DNA of 64,000 nucleotides from Azolla caroliniana (lineage: Eukaryota; Plantae; Polypodiophyta). The notes under the pieces are model-generated. The model saw nothing but the letters and a program-made list of their open reading frames with translations, searched no databases and was not told the origin of the DNA. Made by a program: the position numbers and the translations under genes. Positions 51,974-60,600 of this stretch are shown one piece after another; position 1 is the stretch's first letter, and every line of letters begins with the position of its first letter. The stretch lies in assembly GCA_043228905.1 (NCBI GenBank), contig JBHGNT010000006.1, positions 3,100,001 to 3,164,000 on the forward strand, given 5' to 3'.

Positions 51974-53547
51974 TGTGAAATGCACATAAGAGATCAAAAC
52001 CAGTCTACTTAGCTTCTTACTTCTTAATCAATTTATAGTTGATACAACGGAACCCATTTGGGTTGGCTTGGCTAAAAAGGGTGTGCTAAAAGGGTGGGTC
52101 AACTTGGGTACGTGCATCCTAAAAAGGGTGAGCTAAAAGGGTGGCACAAAGGAACACATGCACACCACACACACCACATTTCCCCCTTGCGAGAAATAAG
52201 AGATTGAGGGGCATGAACAAGAACATGACAGGTACATGAACAAGAATAAGAACAATGGCTTGTCGAATGAGGGGGAGCATCTGATGGCAAGTTTCAAATG
52301 GAAATCCATGGATGATTCTAGTGCGAGATGAGGGTTACACCCATAGAGTGCTTGAAAAGGGTTTATTTATGCAACCATCTCGTGTTTGAGGGTCTTGTTG
52401 AGGCGTTCGGTGAAGATGGCGTGGGGATGTAAACATCTACCGACACATAGTTGAGTTGCAATGACATTGAGGACATCCCCGTGGAACTGTTGGCCTTGAT
52501 AGTTGGACGAGGCTAGTGACGGAAAACGAGCTAGCAATCGGTGAATAGAGATCAATCACTCTTGTGGACTGAGGGCCATCTGGACTTTGCTGAGGTGGGG
52601 GACAGGAGGGCTATCGTATCAGAGGGGGATCGAGGAAAGATCATATGGCGGCAAAGATCAATCGCTCCTGTGGACTAAGGGCCACCTGGACTTTGCTAAG
52701 GTGGGGGACATGAGGGCTATCGTGTCGGAGGGGGATCGAGGAAAGATCATATGGCGGCAAAGATTAATCGCTCTTATGAACTGAGGGCCACTTGGACTTG
52801 GCTGAGGTGGGGGACAAGAAGGTTATCGTGTCAAAGGGGGATCAGGGAAAAGATCATTTGGCAAAGAAAGATCAATCACTCAGTTGGTCGGTCTAACTAC
52901 CACCTGGACTTGGCTGAGGTGGGGGTCTGGAGGGCTATCGTGTAGGAGGGGGATCAAAGAAACTCATGGGACAAGAAGTTAGTGGGCAACCTAAGGTGAG
53001 GGGGAAGAGTTGGTGGGGCAAGACATAAAAGTGGTGTGAGAAAGTGAGAGTGTCTAAGGTGAAAGTGTAGTGGGCTTACGTGCTAGAGAGGTATAGATGG
53101 CGATCGCAAAAAAAGACTTGGATGGAGGAAGCGATGGATATCGGGAGGCCTAACTAGTGAACTAAGGCGGTGCTAATAGAAAAGATACTACTACAAGAGA
53201 CTAACAAGAGTGTCGGTGATGGTAGTGAGGGCGATGTTACCTACGAAGCGGAAGAGGCAGATGCTTGGATGTGGGGGACTAATACCCCGCTTCTCCACCA
53301 ATATGTGAAATGCACATAAGAGATCAAAACCAATCTACTTAGCTTCTTACTTCTTAATCAATTTATAGTTGATACAACAGAACCCATTTGGGTTGGCTTG
53401 GCTAAAAAGGGTGTGCTAAAAGGGTGGGTCATTTTGGGCACACGCATCCTAAAAAGGGTGTGCTAAAAGGGCAGGGACAACTTGGGTACGTGCATCCTAA
53501 AAAGGGTGAGCTAAAAGGATGGCACAAAGGAACACATGCACACCACA
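51974..53547 (-). mobile_element. Non-autonomous Ty3/gypsy-derived LTR retroelement (TRIM-like), 1574 bp
   Basis: LTRs 51974-52178 and 53304-53547 (TG...CA, highly similar). TSD ATAT/ATAT. PBS 53282-53300 matches the plant tRNA-Ala 3' end. PPT AGGGGGAAA 52179-52187. Integrase remnant QGQQF...ERLNKTLK in ORF 52367-52555. Confidence 0.9.
52549..52960. repeat. ~106-bp tandem array (about 4 copies) inside the LTR element
   Basis: gccac.tggact..gctgaggtgggg...agggctatcgt...aggggga tc..ggaaagatca recurs at ~52574, 52681, 52787 and ~52900. Confidence 0.85.
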
Positions 53548-54296: not shown

Positions 54297-55688
54297 TCAA
54301 TCCTCTTCAGATTCAGCACTCTGAAGCCAATCAACAAAAGGTTTTGCAAACTTTTTCACATCACTGCTGTCAGAAACACCATTGTACCAAGTCACTGTGT
54401 CATCTTCTTCCAAAATATCAAGATCATAAAGCATCTTCAACACTGCAGAAATCTCCTTCTGCAGTTGAAGAGATCCTGAAGAACAATATGCTTCCACAGC
54501 TCCAAGCAACAGACGTTGGGAATGCTCACCCCTAACCATCGCCTGAGCCAAGAACAGTTTCTTCTTATTGATTTCTTTAGGCAATCCCTTGGATGTTCCC
54601 TGAAACAAAGCTTCAAAATAAGCATTCATAACTTCCTGCTCAGAAGAGTGAGGATGAACAGAATACAGCCTTTTCACCAGCTGTTTCTCGTCAAATTCAT
54701 CATCTATACACTTTCTAAATTCTTTTACAAGAGATTTGTATATATCCTGAGAATTAACAAGAAGAGAATCTGTTGTCTCTTTTCCTGAAGCAGCTACTTC
54801 CTTAGATGTTTTCTTTACTGCTCCATTCGATCTATGTTCATCATTACCAGAACTATTTACACAGGTTTTCTTCACCGTTGCTTTGGGCTTTTGTTCACCA
54901 TTATCAGCATTAATCAACATAACAAGCTCACTCGTAGCAGCAGTCAGCTGTTCTTTGATCCGCTGCTGTGCAGCTAAAGCAGAAGTGTCTGTTTGCCATT
55001 GCACAACATCCTCATCCTCATCCTCATCTTCTTCACTCTCATCCCTTTGGCTTGATGCAGGAGAATGACCTTCAACATCACCATCAGGAACTTTCTTCTT
55101 CGCAGTCACATTACTGTTTCCTTCATGAATCTTCTTTACCTTCAGCTCTTTCTTGCTTTTCTTCATTTCTTCATCCAAAGCCTCACCTGCTTTCAACCGT
55201 TCTTTCTCAGCTTTCCTCATCCCTTTCTTGTCTTTCTTCTTCTGTTCCGGAGGATTCTTCAATATGAAATTTGTAAGCTTATCTCTCATATCCACATCAG
55301 ATACAAACCCACAAGCAGCACATTTAAGAGATATAAGCTGACTCTTCGATATCAAAATTTCAGTCTCAGGATTTCCACATCCATAACACTGAACATATTT
55401 CTTAATAAAATTTTCTAATAGTGCAGCAAGTTTGCCAGTCTCATGTGCTCCATTAACAATCGCAGTGCCAGTTTTTTCATCAAACTTGGATTGGGCACCA
55501 AGTTCACATCCAAAGTACTTAGTAGTATATGCAGGAGGTCTACCCAAAGCCTTGGCAACATCAACCATGTTTGACAAGTTGGTCTTGATACCATTTCCCC
55601 TACCTTCAACCTTAGTGATAAGCTTCGGCATTTTATATCTATAAAAGGCGTCATCTTGATTGCTCACACCAATGTTCTGAAGAGCCAT
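54297..55688 (-). CDS. eIF5: Eukaryotic translation initiation factor 5 (463 aa, CDS intronless)
   Basis: MALQNIG...[24 protein letters not shown]2C2 zinc finger CYGC/CAAC, QWQTDTS, W2/HEAT C-terminus with [16 protein letters not shown]. True ATG at 55688 in strong context AAAACAATGG; the ORF-track start at 55850 is a TTG. Confidence 0.97.
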
Positions 55689-55728
55689 TGTTTTATTTTC
55701 CGAGAATATTTCAATATATATGTATATA

Positions 55729-55902
55729 TTATGGAAAGGGTCCCTTATCAAGCAAATGAAGAATGCCCTGTCCTCCACACCAACGGTGAAATGTACTCCA
55801 GCTGTAATGATAAGAAACTGGATATGTAGAAGGAGATACCTCACCCTCAAGATTTAGGGTCAGGGTCGACCGCATACAGAATTTATAAGGCTCTCTGCGC
55901 AT
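55729..55902 (-). CDS. Upstream ORF in eIF5 leader, 57 aa (candidate conserved-peptide uORF)
   Basis: ATG 55902 to TAA 55729: [57 protein letters not shown]. Second in-frame ATG at 55875. Ends 40 nt before the eIF5 ATG and lies downstream of the leader-intron acceptor (~55935). Confidence 0.8.
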
Positions 55903-57465
55903 CACAATGAATCACTCCAAGGTTGACGTAAGCTCTGCAATGTTAACGGATCCAGCAAACAAAGTTAATGCATTTATATAACATGCAACTCCCGCAATGA
56001 CAATAAAAAAATGCAAAATAACCCTGCTAACCGATATTAATCATATTTCTCCAAATGCCCTCCGGTTATTACATTCTTCAAAAATTGTATAAACCAATTG
56101 GGGATTATGGTCATTTCATCCACTTAAACCCACTCAGGCAGTATAGCCTAGGGAATTTGGGAATGTAACAGGCACTTATAGGGGAATTCAGCGAAATAAT
56201 AAAAAACTGAGATTCATTAAGGTATATAAGGAAAACTCTGTGGCAATCACGTACCTCTCAAAGAAAACTGAATAAATAGCACCAATCAAATCATCCCACT
56301 AACTATGTTCGATTTCATAAAGCTCAAGATTTGTTCCAGAAAAGAAGTAGTCATAATTCAATGAAAATGAAAAACTAATAATGTAGGAGCATGGATTGTA
56401 TCAGATAAAAAATTTCAACGAGAATAGGACAGGAGGCAATTGTTAATCGGTTATGATGATGAAATATAAAGACCTACCTAGTAACCAATATATTCAGCCA
56501 CTATACAAGCATAGAATCAATTTTAAAACTTGTTTCTCAAGAAAAACTAGCAAATTCCAGATACTTGACTAACATACACTCCGAGAATATCCAAAAATAC
56601 TAACATTACTAACCTTTTGAACTTTTTACGTAAGTTATTGAATATTTCGTATAAGAAATTCGAACAAATTCAGTTGAGCATTATTCAAATATATTACGCA
56701 TCGCCTTTGACTTTTACTACAAGTAAAATTAGACACAGTCGATAAGCCTAAGGGCTACAAAAAATTATCAAAATTATAAACTTTTTTCTATCAAAAGAAC
56801 TCACACAAAGCGATCTAAGTAGGAAAACTGCAGCATACAAAAAGCACTATCTTTCCTATCAATATTGGATTCAGATTAGGACGGTCACAATATAAGACTA
56901 GTATCCTGATGAATTTCAAGGACCAAAACCACACTCTTTCCTCGGTGTGAATTGAGAAACTAAAGACAATGATACACAAAAGTTGACCATGTCTAACAAG
57001 ATAAATCCGGAATCCTGCATTGATGTCATTAGAGAAATGCACGGATGGCAGATGAGAAAGAACGAATAAATTGGTTATATGGAATTAATGTTTCAAACTC
57101 AATCAAAATTGTGAGATATGTTGGAGACATGTAAATAAGGAGATTAAGGAATTTGCTTTCGTATGATGCAAGAATTTCAGGATACCACAGATCATATTAG
57201 AAAGGCCTCCGGAGTTAGAATCGGGAACGCAGAGAATCAATGAACTCTACCGAAGGCCTCCAAAATAATGGAATAAAGAAAGAATGGCAATCAATATACT
57301 GGACCGAGAACGCAGAAGAAAACACAGAGAATCAATGAGCTGTACTACAAAGAAACAGTCTGATTATGAAACTTCAATGGTTGACAGATACAAGCCATGA
57401 TGATCAGGAAAGCTGAAGCAAAAACCGAATATCAAACATAGAGAGAGGGGGGGGAAGGAGATTAC

Positions 57466-57665
57466 CTGATGAAAAGAAAAAAAAACCTCGATCGAGGCCG
57501 CAGTCAGAATACAATGGTGCCGGAGAATGGAAAGTACAGAGAATCGATGGATTGGCACAGGATGGATATACAGGACACACAGATGAAGAAGCGAGAGACC
57601 TGCTTCAGAAACCCTAATGAACGCTGCCCTGAAAATGTATGCATATATGATATATCTATAAATCA
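57466..57665 (-). promoter_or_regulatory. eIF5 non-coding first exon and core promoter
   Basis: Donor CAG|GTAATC at 57465 opens a ~1.5-kb 5'-UTR intron to ~55935. Telo-box aaaccctaa at ~57609; TATA-like tract at ~57643-57661. Confidence 0.6.
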
Positions 57666-60600
57666 ACCGACGTCCGGTTTCACACTAGCCGGACAAAACC
57701 CGAACGAGCTCCTTCCTCCTCCCCGTGTGAAATGAGGTTCGTTCTTCTTTGCGATTTCTCTCGTGTGGATTTCCAAGTGTCGGAAAAAAGGCCATATGTT
57801 GTCTTCCGTTTTGTTCGTACTCGATCTCTTGCAGTTTCTCTCATACTTCCAGGTCTCGAAAAAAAAGGCCATATGTTGTCTTCCGTTTGTTCATAATCAA
57901 TCTCTCCTGTTACTTTTGTCGTTGTGGTATGTGCAAAAGCTCTCATCTGTATATCGAGACATTATCATCTAAGAGAAAGAGAGAGAGAGAGAGGGAGGGA
58001 GGGAGACGCTAGTCATATTTGACCTCCAAATACGATAATAGAATCTATATATCTATCTATATTTCTCTCCTTTCTCATAAAAGTAGTGAGGATCGTATTA
58101 AAACAAGCTGACAAATTACAATACGCGAAGCCATTGTTGTCCTCGTAGTGTTGAGGACCTTATGCCAAGGCCGAACCTCTAAGATGCTACAAGACTATAG
58201 CTAGGATAGCACTATCTCCTTTGATGACAAGGTACCAAAACAACTTTCTTTTCAACTTGTTACGATACTCCGTGATGAGGATCGAAACAAGAAACTCATC
58301 TCATACTTTGAGTGTACCATAGATCCCAAGACACGATTCCCATGTAGAAATACCTAAAACCATCGTGGTAGTTAAGTATCTTGTTGTTGTATATATAGCA
58401 AATATAAGATTTCATATGAACATGTTACCCTCACAATATTGTCATTATTTGTTAATTATTGTCTTCTATTGTTGTTTAAGATGCCTACAAGACATTTCTA
58501 CGTGCATGTTTTGTCTTGTACCAAATTTGGCCTCCATTTAACGAAATTATATTGTTAATCTCATAAATTAATCTCTCTCTATATATATGTATGTATGTAC
58601 TATGTACGTATACATACATACATACATACATTTGCACCGTTTCAACCACATTTTAGATCGAAGTAGCCAATTCGCTTTATTCAAAGGCATCTATTCTACC
58701 TAAAAGGTCCCAAATGTTTGCAACTTTAGGGACAATCCTTCATCTTTATTTGTGTACAAGTTGCATCCATGACAAAAGAGCATATATGCTCATCCCAACT
58801 TTTATCTTTTATACGTTTTTGGTAGAAACAACCAAAAAGCAAATCCTATTTTTTGATAAGCTTACGAACCATTCATTGTTGGTTTTGATTATGGCTTATA
58901 ACATACTAGTCCTACATTCAAGTCTCACCTATCTTCTTATAGTATTGAACCCGTGACCTTTTTTGTTTAAACCAACTAACCTTTCATGGCACATACATTG
59001 ATGTGGTGCTAATATTTTAGGAACAATTATTTTCATTTTTTAACTATTGTATCAATTAACGTAGCACTAAATTTTAAAGCACGTCATTGAGAATTTATAT
59101 TACTAGAAAATGCGTAGACTCCAAGAATGGTGCAACATCAATCAACACAACCACAAGTCTCGATGGAATTCTCTCACCATCATTCTCCTTGTTGGGGTTG
59201 CACCCTATGCTAAGCATGTCTTATCGAGTAATATGTCAAAGTTAAAATAACTATGATTGCTCTAATTTACTAGTCAGAGAGTATGAAATATGTATGGAGG
59301 TTTCATGCAATAATTGTTTCTCTTCAATAGACAACCTCACGAATTGAGTTAGAAGTTTCTTTGTACTTTCTAATTGTTTACATACAAACAAAGTCCAAGG
59401 ATATTCACTGAATTGATCCATGAATGTTTCTATGAGGATAATCATGCAACATGGCAGTTGGTGTGATTAAGCACCCTTGATCCATATATTCTCGTTGATT
59501 TGTTTTTCTTTTGCTTATCATTAATTTGATTTGTAATATTTGGTACTACAACTTTAAATGGTTTTTTCCCCTTATCTCGTTGCCACGCCATTGAATATTA
59601 CCTTATATTATACCTTGATCGGATAATAGATCTGATGAAGAGAAATGTGGCTCATCAACGATGTCTCAAGCAACCGTAAGAAAAGGGATAGCTAGTCCAT
59701 TATATATAGCTCAACTACTAAGGCTTGTAGACCACCACGTATTTGTTAGATATCATCAACGATCACCCCCACATTGCCAATTTATGTCCATATGCATGCT
59801 AAGAGTGTAAATTTCGTGATAACACCCCAAATGAGGAGTAGTTATTGTGCAACTTAGCCATATGGGTTGATGTATTTATGAATTAGAATTAGAAATGATG
59901 TATTTATGAAAGAGGGAAGTATGGTAATGTGATTGACTAGAATAATATTCTCTATTGGTAGGTTAAGTTGAAGTTGTGTTTGAATTATATGCCATTGACT
60001 TTATGATAAATGTTATTTAGAACTAGCTTGTATATGGGGAATTGGGCCATATTAAATAAGCCAATTGAGTGAAAAGGAATATCCCCACTACTATCAATTG
60101 ATGTGCACATTTTAATGTGCCAACAAAGCCAAACACATAATATCAATATCAATATCCATCCTCATTCGCTTTAACTTGGTTGTTGTGAGTTTGTGACTCT
60201 TATTTGTATGAACTAAATGTATAGTCAACTAGTCCCGACTCCCAATATCCAATATAAACTCTAAGGTATGAGCACATGGGAGGAAAACTACCATTGTAAG
60301 CTACTCTCATATGTAATAGAAAATTTGCGTTGACACATACATCATGTGAGTGTAACTCTATTTGCCCATTTAGTCGATTCTCAACATTTCTAACAATGTT
60401 CCCATGTGTCATATGTCTTCATGGGTTTGTTCCAATTCCCAATATAATGTGTTTCTTGACTATCCTACCCTTCATCCATTAAAATTAGTTATAGAATTGG
60501 TCCACAAGGTTATGCATGTAACAAATGATCAAGGTGAAAAGTTATGATAACAAATCGTCATATTGAAAATCAGAGCCAACTTGATGGAGGTATGGAAGTA

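Follow-up and report, generated by a model that had tools for sequence, protein, structure and literature searches.

A selected peptide uORF in the eIF5 leaders of the fern Azolla caroliniana and its relation to the plant eIF5 uORF HG7

The eIF5 gene in the analysed stretch of Azolla caroliniana DNA (64,000 nucleotides, hereafter the window) has in its leader an upstream open reading frame (uORF) whose peptide is under purifying selection. Homologues of this frame precede all three intact eIF5 genes of the genome. Taken together, the analyses make it probable that this is an inhibitory peptide uORF that draws scanning ribosomes off before they reach the eIF5 start, and through it eIF5 likely restrains its own production. 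The control of eIF5 by an inhibitory uORF is an established circuit, and the job of the fern uORF is probably the same as the known one. The strictness of every start-codon choice is set by eIF5 and eIF1.

The positions of the uORF and of the surrounding features are listed in Table 1. A preliminary description made from the letters of the window had proposed a frame of 57 residues shortly before a strong eIF5 start, and the length, the distance, the end of the peptide and the letters of the main start were all confirmed on the minus strand. The product of the downstream gene has the Pfam domains PF01873 and PF02020, both over the cut-off. The spacer between the uORF and the eIF5 ATG measures 44 and about 26 nt in the other two intact genes (paralogues L002 and L003) and includes 1- and 2-nt indels in related runs. 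The length of the uORF alone is not beyond chance, as 45 ORFs of at least 30 amino acids were counted in the same 6 kb; the uORF is considered more than chance because its peptide is conserved. Its best-kept stretch consists of the block G20-W41 and the DKGP end, the latter located one or two codons ahead of the stop, and it overlaps the C-terminal segment singled out in the preliminary description but is wider. Repeats were observed on both sides of the gene. A direct repeat of about 30 nt is present in the eIF5 promoter region (57785-57817 and 57861-57892), and the region 52000-53500, downstream of eIF5, includes G-rich repeats; its tandem units are about 110 nt long, and a longer direct repeat is found close to either end, an arrangement that resembles a mobile-element remnant.

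Table 1. Features of the eIF5 leader and gene in the window
Feature	Position	Strand	Remarks
eIF5 CDS	54297..55688	minus	463 aa, intron-less, start AAAACA-ATG-G
Spacer between uORF and eIF5 ATG	55689..55728	minus	40 nt
uORF, 57 codons + TAA	55729..55902	minus	homologues in paralogues
DKGP motif	55738..55749	minus	invariant in the three paralogues and L006
Block G20-W41	55780..55845	minus	best conserved part; opens with GEVSPST
Second uAUG, TTCTGT-ATG-C, in frame, Cys-Met	55872..55881	minus	-3 U, +4 C
First uAUG, ATTGTG-ATG-C	55899..55908	minus	-3 G, +4 C
Leader intron, 1531 nt, GT..AG	55935..57465	minus	from transcript contigs
Leader exon 1, without ATG	57466..57608	minus	5' limit taken from the longest contig rather than from a mapped start site
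AAACCCTA	57609..57616	plus	at the 5' end of transcript contigs

Contigs from sequencing runs of related organisms were used to define the leader. Those of run X1 skip 55935-57465 with a GT..AG joint on the minus strand, the joint recurs in those of X2 and X4, where exon 1 has a variant end, and contigs of X3, X4, X12 and X14 diverge from the genome at the same acceptor. The leader splice fits all six runs, which are presumed to be RNA or are of unspecified kind, none being on record as RNA, and the GT..AG joint is that of a spliced mRNA. In five of the six, a single contig piece includes the uORF, the spacer and the start of the CDS; the uORF is retained in the spliced contigs rather than removed with the intron. 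Within the spliced leader of 389 nt the only ATGs are the two of the uORF frame, compared with 5.9 expected from its base content, and the earlier expectation that it would hold no further ATG was borne out. The word AAACCCTA, which we take to be a telo-box, is also found in L002 and L003, close to their predicted first exons. Just past the acceptor, at 55927-55929 (minus strand), there is a near-cognate ACG in frame, followed by a TGA after five codons, and at the matching place of L002 (L002:1469-1471) there is a near-cognate CTG in another frame. An older start may have left these triplets behind.

The eIF5 proteins were placed in a quick tree with SH-aLRT support only and a midpoint root. 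Its 58 rows include 27 named and 18 unnamed sequences out of 120 listed proteins, the three genes of the genome and 10 of 80 metagenome loci. The window protein groups with sequences of Adiantum and Ceratopteris (SH-aLRT 99). A single clade (95) within this fern group unites the three paralogues, which agrees with the suggestion, made before the origin of the DNA was considered, that the host is a non-seed plant. In the fern clade, one unnamed eIF5 (cluster P0004) is called from an upstream AUG in frame, which makes its N-terminus seven residues longer; the eight members of the cluster are of equal length.

A search of the genome with the uORF peptide returned four matches, itself included. 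Two of the others lie in front of eIF5 genes, L002 (80% identity, E 1e-25) and L003 (51%, E 0.007). No eIF5 follows the fourth (L004:1501-1632, E 0.95), which was treated as a chance match; it appears to fall inside an intron of a gene that, judging from a motif, presumably belongs to the HINT family. In addition to the three intact eIF5 genes, with uORFs of 57, 55 and 68 codons, the genome includes two broken copies (L090 and L091, in G000:C14 and C1) that lack the 5' end and have a common unrelated upstream stretch; L090 is similar to L002. The comparison of the window uORF with that of L002 gave dN 0.099, dS 0.91 and dN/dS 0.11 (NG86), a ratio equal to that of the eIF5 CDS in the same pair, and 44 of 55 residues are identical when 34.7 would be expected under random changes (P 3e-5, simulation). 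Within G20-W41 the 22 residues are all identical, with seven silent and no replacement changes. Between the window and L003 the ratio is 0.20 (NG86; simulation P 2e-4), a rough value as dS, 1.5-2.7, approaches saturation. No long blastn match was obtained for the leader introns of the paralogues. In four related runs, four of the six variable sites of the uORF are silent and there is no indel or stop, a small count from runs that are not independent. These results indicate that the uORF peptide is under purifying selection; the ratios lie well away from the value near 1 that would have spoken against the frame proposed in the preliminary description. Its conservation is of the kind generally asked of plant conserved-peptide uORFs (CPuORFs), as observed between paralogues and close relatives, not across orders. 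The peptide has conserved motifs of its own, YSW..RW.GG and DKGP.

Selection of this kind could also be due to a peptide that works in trans, as a micropeptide whose effect on eIF5 translation is incidental. The dN/dS, which along most of the uORF is as low as in the eIF5 CDS, would fit this explanation, which we nevertheless hold to be highly improbable, since the genome has no free-standing copy, the significant matches being solely in eIF5 leaders, and since the known plant CPuORFs described in PMC9305500 act in cis. Furthermore, the peptide has no family, atlas or protein-database relative, a comparison limited by the fact that small ORFs are seldom called. It belongs to no Pfam family and had no candidate in the protein search; its three matches in the 50% library were all repeats or unrelated long proteins, the alignment-based search among longer proteins found no relative, and the atlas gave no usable match.

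The selection on the peptide is also pertinent to the idea that the stretch is kept as RNA, or as an alternative first coding exon or a non-AUG extension of eIF5. The eIF5 frame is indeed open for 55 codons upstream of the AUG in the window copy. However, it is closed in both paralogues and is shifted by a 1-nt deletion in all four relatives, 19 of the 31 changes with respect to L002 fall at third positions of the uORF, and none of the contigs of the six related-organism runs splices the uORF onto the eIF5 CDS. With these observations this explanation is largely refuted, and the chance that we would still grant it is minimal.

The starts of the uORF and of the eIF1 genes were then compared with what is known of the stringency loop. 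Autoregulation of human eIF5 has been shown, as has the stringency feedback in human cells, and eIF5 uORFs are near-universal (PMC3326321); in the literature searched, which left subscription papers mostly outside, we found no plant test of this feedback. The first uAUG of the fern uORF has the context ATTGTG-ATG-C in the window and ATTGTC-ATG-T in both paralogues, so that ATTGT(G/C) is kept with a G at -3 in the three genes, and this G is unchanged in four of four related runs. At the second uAUG, -3 is U and +4 is C in each of the three paralogues, and L003 has a third uAUG of the same kind. Both contexts had been called suboptimal before. The letters were right for both, and the verdict stands for the second; by the criteria of Loughran et al., the first is intermediate rather than poor due to its -3 G. 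The three eIF1 genes start at ACGTAC-ATG-T, AAGTTC-ATG-T and TCTCTC-ATG-T, and in every one of them -3 is a pyrimidine and +4 is U. Because weak starts are kept in all three, the loop seems intact on its eIF1 side.

The mechanism that we propose is modelled on human and Arabidopsis work. Ribosomes starting at either uAUG would read 48-57 codons and terminate 40 nt short of the eIF5 AUG, with few restarts, and eIF5 would mostly be made by those that pass both uAUGs in scanning. The first uAUG, with its -3 G, would impose a fairly steady level of repression, and the second, with -3 U and +4 C, would be the sensor, more used at high eIF5 and less at high eIF1. As the first uAUG has a purine at -3, the response to stringency should be blunted. 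The selected peptide would likely act in cis and slow the ribosome, making repression stronger and perhaps signal-dependent. In PMC3326321 the feedback is argued to have no strict need of peptide conservation; therefore, selection on the peptide needs a further function.

Such a function could be dominant, in which case the uORF would be mainly a peptide-driven attenuator or stress switch: the first AUG, being the stronger, would load the uORF steadily, the peptide would stall or be released on a signal, and stringency feedback would be minor. The -3 G kept in the three paralogues and the four related runs, together with the strong selection on the peptide and the invariant DKGP adjoining the stop, speaks for it. 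The position of DKGP hints at a termination stall, and may only reflect shorter divergence; the C-termini are also shared among grass HG7 peptides, and a conserved end among young paralogues is consequently not special. Against it, the second AUG has kept its poor context and the eIF1 genes their weak starts, and the Arabidopsis counterpart CPuORF19 itself, reported in PMC9305500 to respond to mannitol, shows no stop-codon PARE peak there. We regard a mainly peptide-driven switch as unlikely, though worth keeping in mind. In the same source, removal of the CPuORF19 AUG increases reporter output; the findings on CPuORF19 need not transfer to a different peptide. The inhibitory uORF with a likely stringency response, mainly by way of the second AUG, remains the preferred reading.

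The plant eIF5 uORF is known as homology group 7 (HG7 or HG7a), represented in Arabidopsis by CPuORF19 of At1g36730 (PMC2075485, PMC3426882, PMC9305500, PMC7106846); the assignment had been given correctly in the preliminary description, which considered the fern frame its equivalent. To obtain HG7 sequences, metagenome contigs were scanned with the eIF5 N-terminus and 80 of 296 relatives were kept. A canonical HG7 frame was found in 71 of the 80 loci, one of them (L049) with a peptide identical to the published CPuORF19. Another eight had too little upstream sequence (77-212 nt), and the remaining one (L006), a close relative of L003, has a fern-type frame. The nine canonical loci included in the tree are found among mosses, gymnosperms and angiosperms, and the comparison set is without a canonical fern sequence. 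The 42 unique HG7 peptides have a common N-terminal core that ends in a basic patch. A similar in-frame stretch was also noted 10-12 codons upstream of the HG7 AUG, KVE-G-x-x-x-E-A-S-F in many seed plants (L079, L033, L036, L073, L083 and others) and KVAAxSF in mosses, with stops there in some canonical loci; a non-AUG extension and a conserved word of RNA are both conceivable. In a Malus eIF5 model (P0098) the HG7 N-terminal core is fused to eIF5, either as an annotation artefact or as an alternative N-terminus.

A profile of the 42 peptides scored 0.1 bits on the window peptide, as high as or lower than 258 of 1000 shuffles, -0.3 on L002 and 3.0 bits on L003 (21 of 1000 shuffles), the last from the tripeptide CMH only. 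The hhalign probability for the window peptide against HG7 was 0.8%. There was no HG7 match in other frames or at the DNA level, and a canonical HG7 was not found elsewhere in the genome, where the best hit had E 0.33 and two stops. The block GEVSPxTYP, invariant among the fern paralogues, weakly resembles the HG7 core GEY[CS]PT. A profile of the 12-residue core G-L-L-G-E-Y-[CS]-P-[TS]-x-R-K, chosen after the match had been seen, gave 18.9 for the window (shuffle P 0.0045; none of 332 natural decoys as high), 19.8 for L002 (P 0.003) and 8.1 for L003 (P 0.19), while true members, left out one at a time, scored 25-50. Three derivations from HG7 were tested and gained no support: a frame switch, in which the shifted frame looked moss-core-like by eye, had a core profile score of -1.1 bits and was absent in L002; an upstream extension through a KVEG-like sequence brought no gain in score; and a truncated HG7 aligned from the Cys-Met onward had P 0.27-0.42. 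Judged by its sequence, the fern uORF would thus lie outside the homology group, which is defined by peptide similarity. The claim of equivalence holds for the position and does not hold for the peptide, missed by the HG7 profile, or for the near-invariant UUUU-AUG-U start (general context UUUY-AUG-U), which is absent.

The HG7 peptide and the poor first start are kept from mosses to flowering plants, and this pattern is broken in the window fern. By descent the fern uORF is most likely a heavily rewritten HG7, with a confidence somewhat better than even; otherwise, the element was replaced at the same place. Canonical HG7 is listed by ESUCA for one order of ferns, so that either some ferns or some fern paralogues have not undergone the change. 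The portion of the plant list of PMC3326321 that was consulted names angiosperms, conifers, Selaginella and Physcomitrella, and no fern is in that portion. We found no description of a fern-type eIF5 uORF peptide in the literature searched, from which subscription papers were again mostly absent. A bolder scenario, which we consider quite doubtful, is that the fern lineage dropped the HG7 peptide and the poor first start and, in every eIF5 gene, took on another selected peptide that ends in DKGP-stop and has a stronger first AUG, turning a start-stringency sensor into a stop-codon stalling or signal-sensing switch. If true, it would be a rare instance in which the replacement of a regulatory peptide by another can be traced. 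A conserved peptide as part of the stringency loop is found in one case only, that of the plant eIF5 uORF, and the role of this peptide was left open in PMC3426882. The fern frame is a natural experiment in which the peptide and the near-invariant first start have changed, and which retains selection, a weak second AUG and weak starts in eIF1. A comparison between HG7 and the fern frame could separate the effect of context from that of the peptide. Searches for CPuORFs based on similarity would miss such lineage-specific versions.

With respect to known systems, the fern uORF is like HG7 in being located in the same gene and at the same place, past the leader intron and shortly before the eIF5 AUG, in having a length within the HG7 range (57-87 aa) and a peptide under purifying selection, and in its internal Cys-Met AUG in poor context, the form taken by the second uAUG in most HG7 leaders. 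It differs in that the peptide has no MSE/MF start, LLGEY or basic RKK patch, in the distance from the first AUG to the Cys-Met AUG (9 or 20 codons as opposed to 29-36 in HG7), in the core-like block, which follows the Cys-Met in the fern frame and precedes it in HG7, and in the first AUG, which has G at -3 in the fern and U at both -3 and +4 in 42 of 42 HG7 peptides. As these two traces of HG7, the Cys-Met AUG and the core-like block, are in the opposite order, at most one of them marks true descent without rearrangement. The first uAUG also sets the fern apart from the system of Loughran et al., as it has a purine (G) at -3 in the three paralogues, whereas in eIF5 mRNAs uAUG1 has U at -3 in 98.8% and never a purine (PMC3326321). 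Conserved residues one or two codons from a fixed stop are reminiscent of the class I/IIb plant CPuORFs that stall near the stop (PMC9305500), a likeness in position. The other features resemble those of the Loughran-type loop. Each of the three fern uORFs exceeds 50 codons, and an inhibitory uORF of this type in plants has at least 50; there are two uAUGs, without G at +4, and the main AUG is strong. The combination of a conserved uAUG in poor context, a strong main AUG and eIF1 genes with weak starts is present in this fern.
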